This document shows positions 7,533 through 62,417 of a stretch of DNA of 64,000 bases, piece by piece (position 1 is the first letter of the stretch; the number at the start of each line of letters is the position of its first letter). The stretch lies in IMG/VR virus record IMGVR_UViG_3300021319_000003; one strand, given 5' to 3'. The position numbers and the translations under genes are program-made. This DNA comes from a virus (lineage: Duplodnaviria > Heunggongvirae > Uroviricota > Caudoviricetes). Below the pieces are notes generated by a model, which ran no database searches, was not told the origin of the DNA, and was given only the letters and a program-made list of their open reading frames with translations.

Positions 7533-7886
7533 ATGCAAACACGTTTTTCTACTATTCCCAGCATCCCTGAAGATACTATTAAGAGCATTAAGCCGATTAG
7601 GGGCCGCTTCGGCTTGGCCTATTGTGAAGACGGCTCGGTATGGGTAATTCCTTTGAGTTGCAAAGACAATCCCATACACGACACAAATGGAGATGTCCAT
7701 ACGCTTGCAGAATTGGAGAGTGGACAAACAATAAAAGACCGACAGTATTACGAAAAAATCATTAAAGATGCTTATGAAAGCGAAAAAGGCTTAGAAACCG
7801 TAGAAGAAGGTGTGCACTTCACGGATGCACTTCGAGCCTTGTTTGGTATAAAATCGTACAATAAAAAGGGGAGTGGCAGGATATGA
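7533..7886 (+). CDS. hypothetical protein
   Basis: 117-aa ORF with GAGGTGTAAAAATG ribosome-binding site. Confidence 0.5.
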   Translation: MQTRFSTIPSIPEDTIKSIKPIRGRFGLAYCEDGSVWVIPLSCKDNPIHDTNGDVHTLAELESGQTIKDRQYYEKIIKDAYESEKGLETVEEGVHFTDALRALFGIKSYNKKGSGRI

Positions 7887-9796
7887 CCAAAGAAGAGCTT
7901 TTGTCGGCCATCAAACAGGCTGACCATGAATATTATGACCTGGACAATCCGTCCATGTCTGATGCAGAGTACGACCAGTTGCGCCGTAGTTACATTGACC
8001 AGTACGGTGCCGAGGATTTGAACTATGTCCCCGGCAATGCCGTAGATGGTTTTGAAAAATTTCGGCACCCGACGCCGGTCACATCTTTGGGTAAGTGGAC
8101 TAAGGGCGTAGACGATGAGAGCGACCTTAAGGCACAGATTAAGAAGCTGTGGCCGGTAGAGGTTCAGCCGAAATACGATGGACTCACCATAGTAGCATAT
8201 CCGAACAAAAACGGTTCCTGTAAATTCGTGACTCGTGGCCTTGGTGGAGAAGTAGGGGAAATTCTGCCCAACTTCATCCCCGACTATGAAGGCACACATG
8301 TCAACGATAGCGGTTATCCGATTCGTGGCGAAGTATTTATCACGCCAGGGAATTTCGAAATGCTTAACCGGATGCTAGAAGCGGACGGCAAAGAACCGAT
8401 GAAAAATATGAGAAATGCGGCGGCCGGATTATTACGTCGCAAAGAGCGCAGTCCTTACCTGGATTTGCTGACATATATTGTGTATGACATACCTGGTGCA
8501 GATATGACACCGGAGAAAATGCGTACCGAAATTATGCTAAGCACAAGGTTCAGATTCACAGATGGATTTAGCTACGAAACACCTGAAGATACTGTCTCTG
8601 GTATCGAACAGGTGTATGAAGATATAGTTAGCATTGGTGCGTTCCCGATTGACGGTATTGTTATCAAGAGCTGTCAGGAAAATAGCTTGGCAAAGTTCGG
8701 CAATACCGGGCATCATCCCAAGAATGCCGTGGCATGGAAACCGGGCAGAACTGTATTCACAACGGTAGTTCGCGATGTTATCTGGCAGATGGGACGCTCC
8801 AAAGCAACGCCTGTAGCCATCGTAGACCCCGTGGAAATCGACGGCGCTACGGTCACAAAAGCATCCTTGCATAACGCAGAGCAAATTCGCAAGCTGGGAC
8901 TCAAAATCGGAGCTAAAGTCACAATTTTCAAGGCAAATGAGATAATTCCTCAGCTGGGTGAGGTGCTTGAACCGGGCGACAAAGACATCGTTCTTGACGT
9001 TTGCCCCGCATGCGGTGGCCCGCTGAAAACCGTTAATGGCCAGCAGTTCTGCACGAACCCCGACTGTACCGAACGCATCGCACAGAATATCGCATTCCTG
9101 GGGCAGAAAGATGTCTTAGACATCCCCGGCCTGTCTATTCAGACCGCCCGCAAGATTGTCGAAAAGTGGCCGGATACTTCCAAGGAGTATAAGCAGAATA
9201 TCATTTTCGCTATGGACGTTTCCGCTATCAAGGATTTACCGGGCTTTGCAGAAAAATCCGCGCAGAAACTTTGCGACGCCATTCAGAAAGCTCGTAAAGA
9301 TGTTGAATTGCCACGTTTCATTAAAGCTCTTTGCATTCCAGGAATCGGAAACAATATCGGTAAGATTTTGGCTGATAAATATGGCAGCCTTGATGAACTG
9401 TGCACAGCTTGCACAGGCTCCGGTGTCGTTGAAAGACTGCAGCGTATTGATGGCATTGGCCCTGTGGCCGCACAGACCATTGCTTTAGATGAATTCTGGT
9501 CAGCTGTCAGTGACTTGAAAGATTATGTTACTATTGCGTCTTATGAGAAGAAAGACGTTGTGGTGGGCGAATTTGTCGGTAAAGTATTTGTGCTGACCGG
9601 CAAGATGGCTCATCCGCGCAGCTACTATGTCGAGAAAATCGAAGCGGCGGGCGGCAAAGAAGGCAGTGCTGTTAATAGCAAGACAGATTACCTGGTTATC
9701 GCTGATGTTAATAGCCAGAGTTCTAAGGCCAAAAAAGCCAGAGAACTGGGTACAACTCTTATCAGCCCGGAAGAATTGGAGGAAATGCTAAAGTGA
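7883..9796 (+). CDS. ligA: NAD-dependent DNA ligase
   Basis: Adenylation motif KYDGLT, N-terminal Ia domain, Cys4 zinc finger (CPACGGPL...CTNPDC), HhH region and C-terminal BRCT-like segment. 637 aa. Confidence 0.9.
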   Translation: MTKEELLSAIKQADHEYYDLDNPSMSDAEYDQLRRSYIDQYGAEDLNYVPGNAVDGFEKFRHPTPVTSLGKWTKGVDDESDLKAQIKKLWPVEVQPKYDGLTIVAYPNKNGSCKFVTRGLGGEVGEILPNFIPDYEGTHVNDSGYPIRGEVFITPGNFEMLNRMLEADGKEPMKNMRNAAAGLLRRKERSPYLDLLTYIVYDIPGADMTPEKMRTEIMLSTRFRFTDGFSYETPEDTVSGIEQVYEDIVSIGAFPIDGIVIKSCQENSLAKFGNTGHHPKNAVAWKPGRTVFTTVVRDVIWQMGRSKATPVAIVDPVEIDGATVTKASLHNAEQIRKLGLKIGAKVTIFKANEIIPQLGEVLEPGDKDIVLDVCPACGGPLKTVNGQQFCTNPDCTERIAQNIAFLGQKDVLDIPGLSIQTARKIVEKWPDTSKEYKQNIIFAMDVSAIKDLPGFAEKSAQKLCDAIQKARKDVELPRFIKALCIPGIGNNIGKILADKYGSLDELCTACTGSGVVERLQRIDGIGPVAAQTIALDEFWSAVSDLKDYVTIASYEKKDVVVGEFVGKVFVLTGKMAHPRSYYVEKIEAAGGKEGSAVNSKTDYLVIADVNSQSSKAKKARELGTTLISPEELEEMLK

Positions 9797-26594: not shown

Positions 26595-26992
26595 GGGGAC
26601 GAAATTGGTTTCGACAGGGTGTTGAAGCCGTAAGATTCGCAGACCGATGGTTATGACGTCTAACTCATTAACCGCTAAATTTAACTGACGAAGTTGAATA
26701 TCGTCTCGCTGCCTAATCTGCCGTAAGGTAGATTGGTTAGCCCCTATCGTATCACTAGCTGTGAGCAGGGCGGTAGGTTTCAAATAAACACAGCAAACGT
26801 CAGGAGGCCCGCTCGACGTAAACAACACGGGGAGTTTTCCTGCTTTCGAAAAAGCAGGTGGTGGAGGTGTAGACCATTACGCTTTGTTCGGCTGGTTACA
26901 CCCTAGAGAATGGCGCTCTTAAAAATGCCTATTGCGATAATGTCTTACAGGTGGATGCATTTTGGACACGGGTTCGACTCCCGTCGTCTCCA
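26595..26992 (+). ncRNA. ssrA: tmRNA (ssrA), tag reading frame ...DEVEYRLAA*
   Basis: 5' GGGGACGAAATTGGTTTCGACAGGG matches the tmRNA 5' consensus. 3' T arm ACGGG-TTCGACT-CCCGT and acceptor CGTCTCC pair with the 5' GGGGACG. Internal ORF GAC GAA GTT GAA TAT CGT CTC GCT GCC TAA ends in LAA like canonical tags. Confidence 0.75.
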
Positions 26993-26995
26993 CGG

Positions 26996-30384: not shown

Positions 30385-31014
30385 TTGAAATATGTATGTA
30401 AAGTTTGTGGCAATGAATATGAATATGGCCGCAGTAAAGGACACTCAAAAGACATTTGTAACACTTGCAGACAAAACTATAGAAAAAAGCTTTTGAAACA
30501 AAGAGCTGTTAAGTACAAAGGCAGGAAATGTCAGGTATGCGGATACGATAAATGCGAAAATGCATTGGTATTCCATCATCTCGACCCCCAGCAAAAGAAT
30601 TTTGGCATTGGACAAAAATACAATCTCGGCTGGCATCGCTTAAAAAAGGAATTAGACAAATGTGTTCTTCTTTGCGCTAACTGCCATGCCGAAGAACATG
30701 CTAAAGGACAGCACAAACTTAATGAATACGAAAAATGGATTGTTCCACTAAAAGAAAGAGTTCGTATAGCAGAAGAAAAAGTTGCAAAAAAAGCGATGGA
30801 AAAAGAAAAATTCTGTAACCATTATGATGTCGATGAAGCGGTCTTAGGAAATATACGTCCCTGGGCAAGAAAGACGGTGCGTCCAACGAAAGAAGAATTC
30901 TTCAAAGAGTATGAAGAAGTTGGTCGCAACAAATCTGAGATGGGACGGCGCTATGGCGTTTCTGGTAAGGCCATAGCAAAATGGATAAAGTCGTACGAAA
31001 AGTATGGCGCATAA
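30385..31014 (+). CDS. HNH homing-type endonuclease with C-terminal HTH
   Basis: HNH core FHHLDP...NLGW...LLCANCH and N-terminal Cys pairs. C-terminal RRYGVSGKAIAKWI is HTH-like. Confidence 0.75.
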   Translation: MKYVCKVCGNEYEYGRSKGHSKDICNTCRQNYRKKLLKQRAVKYKGRKCQVCGYDKCENALVFHHLDPQQKNFGIGQKYNLGWHRLKKELDKCVLLCANCHAEEHAKGQHKLNEYEKWIVPLKERVRIAEEKVAKKAMEKEKFCNHYDVDEAVLGNIRPWARKTVRPTKEEFFKEYEEVGRNKSEMGRRYGVSGKAIAKWIKSYEKYGA

Positions 31015-31064: not shown

Positions 31065-31303
31065 TATGGAATAAGCAAGGCGAAAGCCTTGTAAGTTCCT
31101 CTCCTTTTTCTAAGAAACAAACAAAATAGCGAGCGCTCTGAACTTCGGTTCAGGCGCCCGTAGAGCTCTTAATAAAGATTGAGAGTTGTACGGGCGAAAG
31201 CCTTTTTAGCTATTGTTCAAGAAACAACTGCGCTCAGACAGTATAACATTCTGGGTAGTGCTTCGGTGTGCTGTGCACGAAAGGAATACAGCCTTCCACT
31301 TAT

Positions 31304-31361
31304 GAGGGGTCGTTGAGAGGCGGGCGCAATGCGTCGCAGGTTCGAACCCTGCCGTCCCTCA
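31304..31361 (+). other. mini tRNA-like minihelix
   Basis: Acceptor GAGGGGTC/CGTCCCTC and T arm GCAGG-TTCGAAC-CCTGC with only about 24 nt between them. Confidence 0.35.
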
Positions 31362-31365
31362 TCTT

Positions 31366-31448
31366 AGGGGTATAGCCAAGTTGGTTAAGGCGGGAGCCTT
31401 TGAAGCTCCGATTTACTTACACTGGTTCGAGTCCAGTTACCCCTGCCA
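31366..31448 (+). tRNA. tRNA-Gln-like (anticodon UUG), 11-nt variable region
   Basis: Acceptor AGGGGTA/TACCCCT, anticodon stem GGAGC/GCTCC with loop CTTTGAA, T arm ACTGG-TTCGAGT-CCAGT, encoded CCA. Confidence 0.55.
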
Positions 31449-31482
31449 TCATCTTCAAAATCAGGCTAACGTCTGACGATGA
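31449..31482 (+). repeat. bipartite hairpin, GCTAACGT-loop variant (family copy 5)
   Basis: Outer stem TCATC/GATGA, inner stem TCAG/CTGA, loop GCTAACGT. Begins at the nucleotide after the tRNA-Gln CCA. Confidence 0.6.
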
Positions 31483-31783
31483 AGGAAAAGAACGCTGGTA
31501 TATTGGCGTCGGCTTTTCCCGTATGATAAAGATACGGACAAGTCATATGGCCATATATCGGCACCGGCAAAAGCTCAAAACAAAAGTGAGTAGCCGGGGC
31601 AAGACCGGGACACCTTCCGGACTTTATTATGTACATCGAGTTGAATATTTTTATGCGTATTATCCAAAGAGTTAGGTGTAGCTCCCGACTCGATGCGGCG
31701 AAGAGAGGATAAGATGCATAGTGAAGATATCTACAAAGGGCAACCGCTTAGTCGAGCTCCCTGCGAACCGGATATCTATCATC

Positions 31784-31868
31784 CGCGTGTAGCTCAGTGG
31801 TGGCAGCGCCTGCTTTGGGAGCAGGAGGCCGCAGGTTCGAATTCTGTCATCCCGACCAATATTATCAT
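31784..31868 (+). other. degenerate tRNA-Pro-like element (anticodon UGG)
   Basis: Anticodon arm CCTGC-TTTGGGA-GCAGG and T arm present, but the acceptor stem does not pair. The overlapping ORF 31693-31938 is judged spurious. Confidence 0.3.
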
Positions 31869-32025
31869 GGCAGTGTCGGCTATATTAAGTTTTCTGGTTG
31901 CAAACAGGACTCTTAACGAAATGGTTGCGCCGATATAAAACAGAACATGCCTATAACACTGGTTGCAAACAGTTTATAGGTGATGCTGGTTGCGGGTTCG
32001 ATTCCCGCCACTGCCCCTTATTATG

Positions 32026-32038
32026 GCTTGGTAGTCTA
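32026..32038 (+). other. 5' fragment of split tRNA-Cys (acceptor GGCTTGG + TA + GTCT)
   Basis: GGCTTGG is the exact complement of the CCAAGCC acceptor 3' strand at 33691-33697. GTCT can pair with AGGC at 33647-33650 as the D stem. Confidence 0.5.
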
Positions 32039-32039
32039 G

Positions 32040-32342
32040 TCAATAACCCCCGTCTAGCGCTTTGCGCTTGAAGGCGGGAGCTTGCGAAAGCAAGCTCTTA
32101 CCGACTAGCCTAAGTCCGGTATTAGACAAGTGCTTGAAAAAGCCTCGGACTACGTTGTTTTCGTTATCACACCCGTGGGTGTTTATCCTAGCTCCCCGCT
32201 CTGTGTAGGCTCTGTAAAAGTTCTGAGAGGAGGAACGGTCAACCTAAGGACGGCCCGCCATTGCGGGCAAGCGATTACAACATTGGCGAAGGGTAGATTT
32301 ACTCTAATTTGAAGCTTCAGCTTCGGAAAGGAGGTACACGTT
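32040..32342 (+). ncRNA. putative IscB omega RNA
   Basis: ORF-free, hairpin-rich region (for example GCGCTTTGCGC and GGGAGCTTGCGAAAGCAAGCTCTT) directly 5' of iscB, which is where IscB guide RNAs are encoded. Confidence 0.45.
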
Positions 32343-33611
32343 ATGTTCGTGTACGTTATCAATAAAAACGGACAACCGTTAATGCCTTGTAAACCTCAGA
32401 AAGCTAGAAAGCTGCTGAGGGAAAACAAAGCTATGGTTGTAAAATATGAGCCGTTTACAATTAAGTTGAAATATGGCTCAGCTGGCTATAAACAGCCAAT
32501 AACTCTTGGTATTGATGCTGGCTCTGTACATATCGGAGCCTCAGCATCAACAGAGAAACAAGAATTATATGCTTCAGAAACGATTATGCGCTCTGGTGAT
32601 GGCAAAGCATCTATTGTAAGGCTTTTGGCTAAACGGTTAGAACTTCGTCACAGTCGCCGGAACCGCAAGACACGGTATCGCAAAGTAAGATTTTTGAATC
32701 GGGTTCGCCGTAAACACAAAGGTTGGCTTGCGCCAAGCGTGGAGAACAAAATCAATGTTCATCTAAAGCTTGTGGCGGATATCCATAAGATTCTTCCGGT
32801 AACGAAAGTTATTGTAGAAGTAGCTCAATTCGATATTCAGAAAATCAAGAATCCTGATATTTCTGGGGTCGAATATCAGCAGGGAGAACAGTTTGGATGG
32901 GCGAATGTTCGTGAATACGTATTATTCCGTGATGGTCATCAATGTCAGTGCTGTAAAGGGAGTTCTGGCGACCCAATACTCAATGTACATCATATTGAAA
33001 GTCGTATGACTGGAGGCAATGCGCCGAATAACCTGATAACGCTTTGTGAAACCTGCCATCAGGGATATCATCAAGGCAATATCTCTTTACCGAAGACAAT
33101 ACATCGTGGCATGAGATTCCGAGACGCGACTTTCATGGGAATTATGCGTTGGGCTTTTTACAACAAGCTTAAAGAGCAATATCCTGATGTGCATTTAACA
33201 TACGGCTACATCACGAAAAACACTCGCATCAAAAATGGTATTACAAAAACACATTCGGCAGACGCCTACTGTATTGCGGGCAATATCAATGCAGAACGGC
33301 TCAACTACGAATATCTTCGTAAACAAATTCGTCGGCATAACCGTAAGTTGCATCGCGAAGTGCCAGCAAAAGGCGGCGTTCGTAAGCGAGCACAAGCCGG
33401 ACATATTGTTCGGGGGTTCTGCTTAAATGACACAGTGTTTTATCAAAAGCAATGCTGGTTTGTGAGAGGTATGAGAGTCAAAGGTTCTTTTGTCTTAAAG
33501 CACCTAGACGGAACTAAGGCTGAAGTAGCACCATCAAAAATAACATTTTTGATGCATAATAATTCGTATTTAGTCGAAAGGAGAGAAGCGGCGCTCACCT
33601 CCACTCTGTAG
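32343..33611 (+). CDS. iscB: IscB OMEGA nuclease (RuvC-HNH, Cas9-ancestor family)
   Basis: N-terminal PLMP motif (NGQPLMPCKP), RuvC-I ITLGIDAGSVHIGAS, arginine-rich bridge RRNRKTRYRKVRFLNRVRRK, HNH HHIESRMTGGNAPNNLITLCETCH, and C-terminal RuvC-III (HSADAYCIAG). 422 aa. Confidence 0.8.
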   Translation: MFVYVINKNGQPLMPCKPQKARKLLRENKAMVVKYEPFTIKLKYGSAGYKQPITLGIDAGSVHIGASASTEKQELYASETIMRSGDGKASIVRLLAKRLELRHSRRNRKTRYRKVRFLNRVRRKHKGWLAPSVENKINVHLKLVADIHKILPVTKVIVEVAQFDIQKIKNPDISGVEYQQGEQFGWANVREYVLFRDGHQCQCCKGSSGDPILNVHHIESRMTGGNAPNNLITLCETCHQGYHQGNISLPKTIHRGMRFRDATFMGIMRWAFYNKLKEQYPDVHLTYGYITKNTRIKNGITKTHSADAYCIAGNINAERLNYEYLRKQIRRHNRKLHREVPAKGGVRKRAQAGHIVRGFCLNDTVFYQKQCWFVRGMRVKGSFVLKHLDGTKAEVAPSKITFLMHNNSYLVERREAALTSTL

Positions 33612-33639
33612 AGGGTGGAGTCCCCCGCGCCGCGTTTTA

Positions 33640-33701
33640 AGTGGTTAGGCAACGGTCTGCAAAACCGTTTCACGCCGGTTCGATCCCGGCCCAAGCCTCC
33701 A
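33640..33701 (+). tRNA. tRNA-Cys (anticodon GCA), 3' portion of a gene split by the IscB element
   Basis: Anticodon stem ACGGT/ACCGT with loop CTGCAAA, T arm GCCGG-TTCGATC-CCGGC, acceptor 3' CCAAGCC + T + CCA. The 5' acceptor half lies at 32026. Confidence 0.55.
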
Positions 33702-33707
33702 TATCAT

Positions 33708-33784
33708 GTGGTTGTAGCTCAGTTGGATAGAGCAGCCGCCTCCTAAGCGGCAGGTCGTGCGTTCAAATCGCACCAATCACACCA
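33708..33784 (+). tRNA. tRNA-Arg (anticodon CCU)
   Basis: Acceptor GTGGTTG/CAATCAC, anticodon stem GCCGC/GCGGC with loop CTCCTAA, T arm GTGCG-TTCAAAT-CGCAC, encoded CCA. Confidence 0.8.
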
Positions 33785-33790
33785 TATTAT

Positions 33791-33877
33791 GCGCCTATGA
33801 TGGAATTGGCAGACATGGGAGATTCAAAATCTCCTGGTAGTGATACCGTGCAAGTTCAAGTCTTGCTAGGCGCACCA
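33791..33877 (+). tRNA. tRNA-Leu (anticodon CAA)
   Basis: Acceptor GCGCCTA/TAGGCGC, anticodon stem GGAGA/TCTCC with loop TTCAAAA, long variable arm, encoded CCA. Spacer ATATTATG to neighbouring tRNAs. Confidence 0.8.
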
Positions 33878-33883
33878 TATTAT

Positions 33884-33960
33884 GCCCTTCTAGCCCAATT
33901 GGCAGAGGCAACCGGTTTAAGCCCGGTACAGTCAGAGTTCGAATCTCTGGAGGGGCACCA
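33884..33960 (+). tRNA. tRNA with anticodon UAA (Leu codon UUA) but class I short variable arm
   Basis: Acceptor GCCCTTC/GAGGGGC, anticodon stem ACCGG/CCGGT with loop TTTAAGC, 5-nt variable region, T arm CAGAG-TTCGAAT-CTCTG, encoded CCA. Confidence 0.65.
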
Positions 33961-33966
33961 TATTAT

Positions 33967-34063
33967 GGGAAACGTCAGGTGGCGGAAAAGAGCATTCGGG
34001 TTCGATTCCCGACGCCCTGCGGGGTCCGTGGTGGTCAGCCTGGTTCGAGTCCAGGGTTTCCCT
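33967..34063 (+). tRNA. tRNA-Ser-like (anticodon CGA), 97 nt with long variable arm
   Basis: Acceptor GGGAAAC/GTTTCCC, anticodon arm TCGGG-TTCGATT-CCCGA, long GC-rich variable arm, T arm CCTGG-TTCGAGT-CCAGG. No encoded CCA. Confidence 0.5.
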
Positions 34064-34085
34064 TTATAAGGAGTTCCTACATTGG

Positions 34086-34140
34086 ACAGTAAGAGCGGGT
34101 TTCGATTCCCGACACGCCGACGGGCGTCCTGGTGGTAATA
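34086..34140 (+). other. pseudo-tRNA fragment (partial duplicate of the tRNA-Ser(CGA)-like anticodon/variable region)
   Basis: GAGCGGGTTTCGATTCCCGACACGCCGACGGGCGTCCTGGTGG aligns with GAGCATTCGGGTTCGATTCCCGACGCCCTGCGGGGTCCGTGGTGG at 33990-34034. Confidence 0.3.
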
Positions 34141-34336
34141 AGTGTTGGTGCGTACAGGCTTCAATTCCGGATGCGAAGTCTGTGCAATTCCAACAGCTCC
34201 AAGTGCGCAAACACTATAAATATGCCTGCTACATGCGGCTGCAGGTATCTTCTTCGGGCGGAGACAATAAATAAACGCCCGAAAGGTCCCGTCAGTGTAG
34301 GGGAACCGTCTGAATACTCATTGCCGCATTTATCAT

Positions 34337-34429
34337 GGACAGGTACTCAAGTGGTTGAAGAGGGTGAGCTTGAACCTCACTAGGTCGCAGTGATGCGGCG
34401 CGCGCGTTCGAATCGTGCCCTGTCCGCCA
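34337..34429 (+). tRNA. tRNA-Ser (anticodon UGA)
   Basis: Acceptor GGACAGG/CCTGTCC, anticodon stem GTGAG/CTCAC with loop CTTGAAC, long variable arm, T arm GCGCG-TTCGAAT-CGTGC, encoded CCA. Confidence 0.75.
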
Positions 34430-34456
34430 GTAATTATATAAGGGGGAGTTTTCACA

Positions 34457-34582
34457 ATGATGAGAGCAATGATTCTTTGTCTTACAGTTGCTTTTATTGG
34501 CTTGTTTGTATTCTTCGGAATTCATTATGCCAATGAAGTAGGACGTGAGATTAAGGATACCCTAAAAAAGTTGTTCGGCTAA
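34457..34582 (+). CDS. small membrane peptide (41 aa)
   Basis: MMRAMILCLTVAFIGLFVFFGIHY... with GGGGGAG ribosome-binding site. Below the ORF-track cutoff. Confidence 0.35.
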   Translation: MMRAMILCLTVAFIGLFVFFGIHYANEVGREIKDTLKKLFG

Positions 34583-58151: not shown

Positions 58152-58691
58152 ATGGAGCTAAAGAAGCTAAGCAAATTCTTATCTCTGATTTTGCGCCATA
58201 AGCCAGAGACAATAGGCATCACGCTTGACGAGCATGGCTGGGCTAATGTGGAAGAACTGCTGCAAAAAATAAATAAGACAGGCCACAGTATAGACCTTCC
58301 CCTGCTGGAGAGAATTGTCGCAGAGAACGACAAACAAAGGTTTTCGTTCAGCGCAGACAGAAAAAAGATAAGAGCCAACCAGGGACATTCGATACATGTG
58401 GATGTGGAGCTGAAGCCGGTGAAACCGCCCGCCGTACTATATCACGGTACTGTAGAAAAGAACAGCGCTTCCATTGAGGCAAAAGGACTGATAAAAGGAA
58501 ATAGGCTGCATGTACATTTATCGGAGAACGTAGAAACCGCGACAAAGGTAGCGGCCAGACGCAAAGGCAAGAATATTATTTACAGGGTGTTTGCTGGTGA
58601 GATGTACAGGGATGGTTTCCTGTTCTACCAGTCCGTCAATGGCGTATGGTTAACGGACAGAGTGCCGGCAAAATATTTGTCAAGGTTATGA
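58152..58691 (+). CDS. kptA: RNA 2'-phosphotransferase (Tpt1/KptA family)
   Basis: LSKFLSLILRHKPETIGITLDEHGWANVEELL, HGT, and R-x-HVHL motifs across 179 aa match the KptA/Tpt1 consensus. Confidence 0.8.
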   Translation: MELKKLSKFLSLILRHKPETIGITLDEHGWANVEELLQKINKTGHSIDLPLLERIVAENDKQRFSFSADRKKIRANQGHSIHVDVELKPVKPPAVLYHGTVEKNSASIEAKGLIKGNRLHVHLSENVETATKVAARRKGKNIIYRVFAGEMYRDGFLFYQSVNGVWLTDRVPAKYLSRL

Positions 58692-60639: not shown

Positions 60640-61866
60640 TTATATATCTAAATTCAATTTTCCGCAGCCCAGATAAATCATAGTCTTGAAATACTCATCG
60701 TTACGGAATCCGCGGGCACGGCGCTTTATATTCTGGATAATGCTATTCATGCCTTCCAAAATAGCGTTGGTGTAGCGATAGTCAAAGTAATTGAGTATTT
60801 CCTGTCAGTGATTTTTTAGCAGTTTAGCAAAGTTTTTCATGGGGGTAAGTCGCGAACGTGTGAGCCAATTGTACAGCTGGTTAAGACGCTCTTCAGCGGT
60901 GGTGCGGTTAAAAGATGTCTCGTAAATATCCTGCAGGGTAACGCGCATAGCGTAGGCTCTAGCCGTTTTCAGGCGCTTGTGCATTAGCGACTCCTTGCGC
61001 TCAAGCTGTTTATCGGTGAGATTCGCATCATTCTTGAGCCAGAGCCATTTGCTCTTGTTAAGCAGGTGCTTATACCAAGGACCTTGCCTGACTTCATCGC
61101 GGCGAACCTCGTCCAGAGCTTCATTGATATGCTTGATGACATGGAATTTATCGATGACAGTGCTGCTGTTGACGAAGTGCTCGTTAATGCCTTTCTTGAA
61201 GCCCAAGGACATATCGCAGGTGACGATTTTGATATTGCCCGGAATGCCTTTATGTTCCTTGAAGTCTTTTACGAACCGATCTACGGTGGCAGAATCTTTG
61301 CCGTTAGTAACAAAGATAACCTTGCGTTGGGCCAAGTCAACAACTACGGTGACATACTTGTGACCTTTCTTGCTGGTCTCGTCGATGCCGATAGCATTGA
61401 CTTCGGAGTAATCTTCACGGGCGCGGGCCTCATCGACATAATGCTTGATGAACCGCCAGAGGCGGGTGTCATGCTCATCTACCATATTGGCAATAGTGGC
61501 GACAGGCAGGTGCTTAGCCAGCTCCACAACCCAGCCTTCGAAGAGTAGGGTAAAACCAGAACCTTCTCTAGCCCAAGGGACGCTGACGGTTTTTACACCA
61601 TGTTCGCCGCACTTAATCCGTGGTAGGTCAGCATGGATATAGGTCTTGTATTGAAAGAAATTAAGGTGGCGCCAGGTTCTAGGCGTCGTGTCGTAGGCAG
61701 TAGTTTCAGCTTCGCATTCGGGGCAAGCAAACTTACTGCCTCTGGGAAAGGAGAGCTCTATATGAAGTTCCATAGTTCCGGATGAGTCCGGCTTGAACTC
61801 CACCTTGGATATAGACCAAGGTTCCGGCAGGTTCAAAGCTGCCGCAAATAAGTCAGTTGTATTCAT
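60640..61866 (-). pseudogene. ISL3-family transposase with an in-frame TGA (codons 60805-60807)
   Basis: The N-terminal zinc-finger and DDE ISL3 regions are intact for 353 aa. A TGA then sits where ISL3 transposases usually have Trp (KNH*QEILNYF). The conserved C-terminus YRYTNAILEGMNSIIQNIKRRARGFRNDEYFKTMIYLGCGKL continues in the same frame. Confidence 0.7.
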
Positions 61867-61945
61867 GATAAGTAAGATAACGCCTTTCTGTCTTATAATC
61901 TCATGGATATAATTCTATAAGATTTTTGGGTGGGCTTCAAGCCCT
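60640..61945 (-). mobile_element. ISL3-family insertion sequence (approximate ends)
   Basis: Encodes an ISL3-type transposase. Terminal imperfect inverted repeats GCAGCCCAGATAAATC / GAAGCCCACCCAAAAATC lie near 60662 and 61945. Inserted immediately upstream of a truncated tnpB. Confidence 0.6.
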
Positions 61946-62417
61946 TACCCACAGTAAACAGCGAAAGGCCAAGTTAGGTTCTGGTCAATGGAAAAAACAA
62001 CGTGTACGAGTTGCTCGTGTTCACGAAAAAATTACAAACACGAGGAATGATTTTCAGCACAAATTATCTTATCACTTGGTTAATGAAAATTCCCTCGTTG
62101 CCGTTGAAAAATTAAACGTCAAGGGCATGGTAAAGAATAAAAAATTAGCTAAGGCAATAAGTGACGTTGCATGGGGAATGTTCTTCGAAAAACTGGACTA
62201 TAAAACCAAAGAGCGTGGCGGGAAATTGGTAAAAATTCCAACGTTCTATCCGTCCAGCCAAACATGCCATGTCTGCGGATTTCAGAATCCAATCGTCAAA
62301 GATTTAAGCGTTCGAGACTGGGTTTGCCCGCACTGCGGAGAATCCCTCGACCGTGACCGAAACGCGGCAATCAACATCTTAAAAAAGGCGCTTTCGATGA
62401 AAACGAAAGTTGCCTAA
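61926..62417 (+). pseudogene. TnpB (IS605/IS1341-type OrfB) C-terminal fragment
   Basis: RuvC-II/III and zinc-finger region (KLAKAISDVAWGMF...CHVCG...CPHCG...DRDRNAAINI). The N-terminal ~240 aa are missing. The open frame starts exactly at the ISL3 boundary. Confidence 0.65.

Follow-up and report, generated by a model that had tools for sequence, protein, structure and literature searches.

An IscB-encoding OMEGA element interrupts a tRNA-Cys gene in the tRNA array of a large gut phage

We analyzed a stretch of 64,000 nucleotides (hereafter, the window) from a tailed phage (Caudoviricetes; IMG/VR record IMGVR_UViG_3300021319_000003) and identified an OMEGA element that interrupts a tRNA-Cys(GCA) gene in its D loop, between A14 and G15. 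The element is 1.6 kb of selfish DNA. It contains an intact iscB gene, encoding an RNA-guided nuclease of an ancestral type related to Cas9, and, upstream of it, a HEARO-type omega RNA, and the guide predicted for this RNA is derived mostly from the interrupted tRNA itself. The host of the element is an animal-gut phage of approximately 340 kb with a large array of tRNA and transfer-messenger RNA (tmRNA) genes. We consider it very probable that this OMEGA element in a phage tRNA-Cys gene persists or spreads by RNA-guided cutting of the empty allele. Features of the locus are listed below (all positions are those of the window).

32023..32038, + strand: predicted omega RNA guide ATGGCTTGGTAGTCTA, 16 nt, outside the element and directly 5' of the scaffold, placed by its position relative to the HEARO start
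32025..32038, + strand: 5' fragment of tRNA-Cys(GCA), with acceptor 5' strand GGCTTGG, U8 and A9, D-stem 5' strand GTCT, and A14
32039..33640, + strand: inserted IscB element, 1602 nt (GTCAAT...TTTTAA), OMEGA, IS200/IS605-type, ISC-like
32039..32302, + strand: omega RNA scaffold, Rfam HEARO RF02033, with sequence conservation extending to about 32330
32330..32334, + strand: GGAGG ribosome-binding site, 8 nt upstream of the iscB start codon, conserved in paralogues
32343..33611, + strand: iscB open reading frame (ORF), 422 aa, with PLMP domain, split RuvC, bridge helix, HNH and a C-terminal region interacting with the target-adjacent motif
33588..33633, no strand assigned: subterminal imperfect palindrome at the element end opposite the omega RNA (left end, LE, in TnpA convention), DNA fold of -13.9 kcal/mol
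33641..33644, + strand: predicted target-adjacent motif GTGG, corresponding to tRNA D-loop G15 U16 G18 G19
33641..33701, + strand: 3' fragment of tRNA-Cys(GCA), with the D-loop remainder, D-stem 3' strand, GCA anticodon arm, variable loop, T arm, acceptor 3' strand, U73 and CCA

In-silico deletion of 32039-33640, with 32038 joined to 33641, yielded a canonical 75-nt tRNA-Cys(GCA) with U73 and CCA, as detected by ARAGORN. A preliminary description of this DNA had placed the first 13 nt of the gene at 32026-32038. This sequence is present as GGCTTGGTAGTCT, but on direct reading it occupies 32025-32037, one base upstream of the position given, and is followed by A32038. The same description had the remainder of the gene resuming after the element and ending with CCA at 33701, and this was confirmed, with the resumed part read from 33641; Rfam detected a partial tRNA match at 33629-33690.

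A pattern spanning the predicted empty junction (GGTAGTCTA-GTGGTTAGG when joined) was used to search IMG/VR, and one contig matched. This contig (IMGVR_UViG_3300019373_000006, here L037) is 211 kb long and belongs to a related phage. Its tRNA-Cys(GCA) is uninterrupted and is identical to the reconstructed gene at 73 of 75 positions (14/14 in the 5' fragment and 59/61 in the 3' fragment). The gene is located directly 3' of tRNA-Pro(tgg) and 5' of tRNA-Ser(cga), and the Pro-Cys neighbourhood is conserved in the two phages. The region 5' of tRNA-Pro is about 90% identical between L037 and the window, and many other segments of the 6.2-kb L037 locus are 80-98% identical to the tRNA/tmRNA region of the window. 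The preliminary description had asked whether the two halves are collinear in related genomes; the uninterrupted gene of L037 implies that they are parts of one gene.

The two junctions share the trinucleotide AGT, which makes the register of the insertion ambiguous by up to 3 nt. We chose 32039..33640 because of the conserved GTCAAT scaffold start: scaffolds of relatives all begin with GT(C/T)AA(T/C), a segment that pairs within the first helix. In this register the tRNA is restored precisely and there is no target-site duplication. Homology to the closest IMG/VR relative, L001 (IMGVR_UViG_3300045988_178545; 81% nucleotide identity), spans 32046-33644, and the flanks are unrelated. An empty site of L001 was searched for and none was found; thus, the junction register rests on L037 and the conserved ends. 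Megablast of 31300-34500 against GenBank phages gave no match, an exact pattern from the tRNA-Cys 3' half matched nothing in IMG/VR, and a shorter tRNA-Cys pattern common to the window and L037 matched only L037 in that database. A metagenome scan with the 16-mer GGCTTGGTAGTCTAGT gave at least 120 matches; those viewed resembled a tRNA-derived repeat on contigs taken as eukaryote-associated, and no occupied junction was present among the matches listed.

The structured region upstream of iscB had been proposed to be an omega RNA, and this is supported by a full-length match to the HEARO model RF02033 at 32039-32302 (83.7 bits, E 1e-16, cmscan), which begins exactly at the tRNA break. HEARO was detected upstream in 20 of 20 IMG/VR relatives scanned, and an alignment of 13 phage omega RNAs revealed compensatory double changes at 22 of 41 consensus pairs. 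With a guide length of 16 nt, the value found in published IscB work, the predicted guide would consist of tRNA-Cys positions 1-14 and 2 nt from the end of the phage spacer, in agreement with the earlier expectation that the guide is templated by tRNA sequence. With up to 3 mismatches allowed, this guide occurs only once in the window. It is identical to the L037 empty site at 16 of 16 positions; the 17th base differs, and the match is followed by GTGG. The sequence after the guide match is GTCAAT in the occupied allele and GTGGTT in the empty allele. Of 185,579 species-representative genomes, a single one, a Deltaproteobacteria metagenome-assembled genome, contained the 18-mer GGCTTGGTAGTCTAGTGG, which comprises the tRNA part of the guide and the motif; this suggests that host tRNA-Cys genes are not an evident target and that the target is phage-specific. 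No sigma-70-like site and no terminator-like site were found on the + strand of 31700-32343, and neighboring genes are all co-directional with the element. According to Meers et al. (2023, PMC10055086), IscB omega RNAs rely on transcription that originates outside the element.

By sequence-level criteria, ORF 32343-33611 is a full IscB. It matched NCBIfam NF040563 guided_IscB ('RNA-guided endonuclease IscB', an equivalog) over residues 3-311 with 362.8 bits (E 1.3e-108; cutoff 175), Pfam RRXRR (E 5e-61) and HNH (E 7e-7), and solved IscB chains, OgeuIscB and others (E 1e-39 to 1e-41, phmmer). The profile search suggested in the preliminary description as a possible refutation thus detected RRXRR/PLMP, RuvC and HNH, and each of the motifs named there was found. 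The PLMP motif is NGQPLMPC, RuvC-I is GIDAGS with Asp D58 (aligned with GIDPGR of solved IscB), and the Arg-rich bridge helix is RLELRHSRRNRKTRYRKVRFLNRVRRKHKGW. In the HNH domain, NVHHIESR aligned with HYHHVVPR and NNLITLCETCH with ENRVGLCEEHH, with conserved His-His/Asn, and in RuvC-III HSADAYCIA aligned with HYLDAYCIA, with H..D conserved. In addition, the RuvC-II Glu is conserved (VIVEVAQF aligned with VVLELNRF). RuvC (D, E, H/D) and HNH (H, N, H) thus both retain all their catalytic residues. The dN/dS ratio between the window iscB and its relatives is 0.03-0.07, with dS near saturation, indicating that iscB is under strong purifying selection in this clade.

Ends of the element are those of the IS200/IS605 type: subterminal imperfect palindromes are present at both ends, with no terminal inverted repeats and no target-site duplication. 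The distal palindrome overlaps the last iscB codons, and its hairpin is kept with a changed stem sequence in two relatives (L165 and L185); a second hairpin set is located at the opposite end (32042-32097). The only gene of the element is iscB. No Y1_Tnp, the domain of Y1 (HUH) TnpA, was present among the 25 of 37 Pfam families listed (best matches of the 80 window ORFs of at least 105 aa), and with no TnpA in the window the element is considered non-autonomous, like most ISC elements (PMC13565253). A search of 31300-34500 against 4227 Rfam models, with E up to 1, detected no group I or group II intron and no other ribozyme family; thus, the element lacks the ribozyme of an IStron or a self-splicing intron. 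As judged from its sequence, it is a non-autonomous IS200/IS605-type (ISC-type) OMEGA element with an intact iscB, and it is of the published IscB/HEARO kind; the rare feature is the interruption of a tRNA gene.

Target-adjacent sequence was examined at the distal end of related elements. At six close-clade sites this end reads ...TTTAG followed by ATGG(A/G), in the window ...TTTTAA followed by GTGG, and in L001 ...TTTTGA followed by GTGG; in more distant relatives, ATGA or ATGG comes next. RTGG thus directly follows the conserved end at eight distinct sites in the clade of at least 84% identity, from which we infer a target-adjacent motif close to RTGG. It has been reported that the IscB scaffold derives from the right end (RE) of the transposon, with the guide outside RE and the motif (TTCAT in ISGst5) 5' of LE (Meers et al. 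2023, PMC10055086). Converted to the iscB strand, this convention gives the order guide, element, ATGAA, with which the position of RTGG in the clade agrees; in TnpA orientation RTGG reads CCAY, comparable to TTCAT of ISGst5 IscB. In many relatives, the ATG of the motif coincides with or just precedes the start codon of the downstream gene, which we explain as a by-product of the target-adjacent motif. In a separate observation, residue 355 of IscB (33405-33407), the variable position of the motif AQAGH-x-V in the C-terminal region, is Ile in both GTGG-flanked elements (window and L001), and A, F, M, S or T in the six ATGG-flanked elements. This residue may contact the target-adjacent motif; the correlation comes from two GTGG cases, too few to build on.

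The preliminary description had regarded residence of such an element in a phage as unusual. Relatives of this IscB were found at 28 IMG/VR loci (50-87% identity), in about 100 clusters of a large protein database (80-90% identity; nearly all metagenomic, some labelled gut or pig gut), and, by tblastn, in 38 of 50,697 GenBank phage records. Goltsman et al. (2022, PMC9755519) reported that more than 16% of HEARO/IscB contigs are viral or prophage-derived, so phage residence was already known. What does stand as rare is the tRNA interruption: when each element was deleted in silico over a grid of offsets and the product analyzed with ARAGORN, a tRNA split by an element was detected at one of 22 insertion sites tested, that of the window, and at none of the 21 other elements.

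At least 8 distinct insertion sites were identified within the clade of at least 84% identity, in addition to the occupied (window) and empty (L037) states of tRNA-Cys, which points to past mobility of the family. A second IscB copy (P0021), 84% identical to the window protein, lies between a NUDIX gene and an isochorismatase gene. The two proteins are recorded with one and the same longest contig (339,914 bp) and come from the same samples, so the phage seems to harbor two or more diverged IscB copies. Other copies were located 23 nt upstream of a DnaB helicase gene (on many contigs), after capsid/cement genes and after a peptidase gene, and at loci with gene calls the genes immediately flanking iscB were always in the same direction. 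Identical IscB proteins at apparently different sites (P0002 and P0006) were considered as a recent transposition and rejected, as these were the same sites on truncated contigs.

A related element (84% identity) was found in the tRNA array of another phage (L179; ERZ27297467 k141_129967, 187 kb), between tRNA-Arg(cct) and tRNA-Ser(tga). The scaffold of this element starts 21 nt downstream of tRNA-Arg, and the first two bases of tRNA-Ser fall within the ATGG motif of the element. This locus was rejected as a second split tRNA, since the ARAGORN matches represented an intact tRNA-Ser abutting the element. We also observed in L179 (909-929) that the 15 nt before the scaffold (TCTACGGGTCACCAC), a guide-sized segment, duplicate the 3' end of tRNA-Arg, with AATTT between. 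In L001 (2634-2695 and 4297-4398), the element is inside a small phage ORF, and the iscB frame runs past the element end into the 3' part of this ORF, giving 465 aa compared to 422 in the window.

A mechanism consistent with these observations can be proposed. Given that no promoter of its own was detected upstream of the scaffold, transcription of the co-directional tRNA array would read through into the scaffold and supply the omega RNA. Such read-through would provide a guide made of the last 2 spacer nt and tRNA-Cys positions 1-14, and its 5' end would probably be set by 3' processing of a tRNA-like gene (described below) that ends 22 nt upstream of the scaffold. IscB and its omega RNA would recognize and cut the uninterrupted allele (ATGGCTTGGTAGTCTA followed by GTGG), either in a sister genome from which the element has been excised or in a related co-infecting phage such as L037, and recombinational repair would copy the element back in, resulting in retention or homing. 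The occupied allele would be immune to its own IscB because the guide match is followed there by GTCAAT instead of GTGGTT. The interrupted tRNA-Cys would be dead: with no ribozyme found, the gene is probably inactivated, and we regard it as most probably non-functional.

Several points weigh against this account of the element. Only one empty-site contig (L037) was found, and samples with the occupied allele showed no empty allele. The HEARO score is barely at the Rfam gathering threshold (83), which is accounted for by two insertions relative to the Rfam model that are also present in L001. The window motif is GTGG, whereas ATGG is the majority form in the clade, and if ATGG were strictly required, the window IscB could not cut the empty tRNA-Cys allele. 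Absence of TnpA from the window is a strong but not absolute result, and first arrival of the element may have occurred by either of two routes, TnpA acting in trans or homing from another phage.

Other explanations of the locus were also considered. The same site is occupied on all contigs with the exact window IscB, TnpA was not seen in the window, and the flanking GTGG departs from the clade consensus ATGG, as would be expected of a fixed, inert passenger that landed once in the tRNA gene, no longer moves or cuts, and is inherited with the phage. However, the ORF is intact with complete catalytic motifs, dN/dS among phage copies argues for a selected protein function, and omega RNA pairs covary. 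In addition, the clade has many distinct insertion sites, and a diverged second copy is apparently present in the same phage; an inert passenger is therefore unlikely. A reading that extends the proposed mechanism to the whole clade is that its phage-borne IscBs are RNA-guided homing endonucleases acting between co-infecting phages ('non-restorative homing' or marker exclusion). The window element would then cut the intact tRNA-Cys of relatives and copy itself in, with an omega RNA taken from the tRNA-array transcript and its 5' end formed by tRNA-processing enzymes, and tRNA arrays would be favored landing sites because guide expression is guaranteed there. We offer this extension tentatively and consider it possible but doubtful.

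Since the guide is tRNA sequence and the predicted motif GTGG is a conserved D-loop element of many tRNA genes, the element might also be viewed as a weapon that directs IscB to the tRNA-Cys gene of the host and cuts its chromosome. This is very unlikely given that the tRNA part of the guide with its motif occurred in a single representative genome, and that 2 of 16 guide bases are phage spacer rather than tRNA. It could also be argued that the tRNA is still made, with the insert removed at the RNA level in an intron-like manner or the halves assembled as a split tRNA, possibly via phage RNA-repair enzymes. Tpt1/KptA and a HAD 'Swiss-army-knife' RNA-repair domain are indeed encoded in the window, and pairing of the acceptor and D stems across the insert is conceivable, but no intron or other ribozyme family was detected in 31300-34500, and relatives reside in ordinary intergenic or coding sites with no splicing signal. 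To our knowledge, neither splicing of HEARO/IscB elements nor D-loop introns in bacteria have been described, and we regard continued production of this tRNA as highly improbable. Finally, short-read metagenome contigs break near the element, and three Logan contigs begin 18 nt before the iscB ATG, which might suggest that an IscB element was joined to tRNA fragments during assembly. These breaks are explained by a 35-nt stretch identical between the window and the paralogous copy. The exact window IscB protein was present on 15 contigs (ENA, Logan and JGI samples), occupied loci retrieved from five independent samples were 99.98-100% identical to the window, and both junctions were spanned at this identity by L159, L160 and L163, which came from different assemblers and samples. 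Samples that carry the phage include ERZ27247041, SRR7031257, SRR7031287 and JGI 3300036347. The chance of a chimera is negligible, and the occupied locus is real.

Comparison with known systems places the element among IscB-omega RNA (OMEGA) nucleases, reportedly described by Altae-Tran and colleagues in 2021. It resembles OgeuIscB (PDB 7UTN, 7XHT and 8CSZ) in domain order, catalytic motifs and an upstream HEARO-type omega RNA with a flank-derived 5' guide. However, the window IscB is shorter (422 aa versus about 496 aa), with roughly 30-35% identity by eye in aligned blocks, its omega RNA has the two insertions mentioned above, and the element resides in a phage tRNA gene. With ISGst5 IscB of Geobacillus stearothermophilus (Meers et al. 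2023, PMC10055086), it shares the IS200/IS605-type architecture, a guide outside the scaffold end and a motif at the opposite end. ISGst5 IscB shares its target-adjacent motif with the TnpA target and was proposed to cut the empty donor joint, whereby the element is restored (PMC10055086). For ISGst5, a cognate TnpA is encoded in the genome and the motif is TTCAT, which reads ATGAA on the iscB strand; in the window, no TnpA was seen and the putative motif is RTGG (CCAY). Furthermore, in the phage setting a co-infecting genome could act as the 'homologous template'.

HEARO RNA/ORF elements (RF02033), which include virus-associated clades (Goltsman et al. 2022, PMC9755519), have in common with the window element the RNA family and viral residence. 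Insertion sites such as tRNA genes are not described in the part of that survey read, whereas the present element is in a tRNA gene and belongs to a clade of about 100 clusters from animal-gut phages. The locus also resembles that of phage T4 SegB and other free-standing homing endonucleases (PMC2330249, cited in PMC13565253) in that a nuclease gene lies in a phage tRNA cluster and its predicted target is the tRNA region of relatives without the nuclease. SegB is described there as recognizing DNA by protein contacts and as located between genes, whereas the window element is predicted to be RNA-guided and interrupts a tRNA gene. As in IStrons, which combine a group I intron with an IS200/IS605 TnpB (PMC4227781, PMC10690162), an OMEGA-type element lies inside a gene; IStrons are spliced out at the RNA level and are harmless, whereas no ribozyme was found in the window element.

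The window and L037, from related large gut phages, represent a natural pair of occupied and empty alleles in which all 16 nt of the guide match and the adjacent motif is defined. This pair provides a test case for whether OMEGA nucleases drive homing between co-infecting phages, beyond restoration after TnpA excision in bacterial chromosomes; in a recent review, such homing is treated only as a concept (PMC13565253). The locus also suggests that tRNA arrays, which are highly transcribed and RNase-processed, are convenient expression sites for externally transcribed guides. An omega RNA made as part of the tRNA-array transcript and trimmed by tRNA-processing enzymes would, if it exists, be the natural equivalent of the tRNA-gRNA arrays built by engineering. 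Tool development could draw on this clade for compact IscB variants (422 aa) with a short putative motif (RTGG).

Additional features were detected in the tRNA array and elsewhere in the window.

30385-31014, + strand: free-standing HNH homing-endonuclease-like ORF, PHROG 2255 (E 7e-29)
31783-31858, + strand: tRNA-Pro(tgg), Rfam score of only 46 bits
31869-32016, + strand: unusual tRNA-like gene, 148 nt, RNA fold z = -3.1; T arm and acceptor stem of 7 bp present
60805-61866, - strand: ISL3-family transposase gene, adjoining the TnpB fragment on the opposite strand
61926-62417, + strand: C-terminal part of TnpB, with OrfB_IS605 positions 62-119 of 120 and a Cas12f1-like TNB domain

A tmRNA (26595-26995) and at least 14 tRNAs were found in the window, some of them with odd lengths or anticodon calls. 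The HNH homing-endonuclease-like ORF is placed inside the array, with tRNA-Ile(tat) on one side and tRNA-Gln on the other, which implies that several selfish elements are hosted by the array. The acceptor stem of tRNA-Pro(tgg) has 2 mismatched pairs (5' strand CCGCGTG versus 3' strand CATCCCG), whereas the L037 orthologue has a perfect stem (CGGGATG); the window gene is possibly decaying.

The tRNA-like gene is located between tRNA-Pro and the split tRNA-Cys, and its 3' end is 22 nt before the omega RNA scaffold. Its acceptor stem is GGCAGTG/CACTGCC and its T arm is normal. It also has two hairpins, both of which carry the loop GUUGCAAA with GCA in it; its discriminator is C and CCA is absent. 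The gene is not present in L037, where Pro is directly followed by the intact Cys. ARAGORN fitted it only with a relaxed 80% threshold, as a tRNA-Cys with a 58-nt intron. In view of the GCA in its loops, this gene was considered as a replacement for tRNA-Cys, which is unlikely given the lack of U73 and CCA and the need for the relaxed model.

The TnpB fragment and the ISL3 transposase gene resemble a disrupted OMEGA-type element, which would be the second in this region of the phage; the N-terminal part of TnpB was not found upstream of the fragment. RNA-repair-type genes of the window (58152-58691 on the + strand, 7883-9796 on the + strand, and other ORFs) include Tpt1/KptA RNA 2'-phosphotransferase (E 9e-48), the HAD 'Swiss-army-knife' RNA-repair domain and an NAD-dependent DNA ligase. 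In another related phage, L032 (IMGVR_UViG_3300021255_004061), a ROOL RNA (Rfam RF03087, 217 bits) was detected at 1098-1677, in the tRNA array directly before tmRNA.

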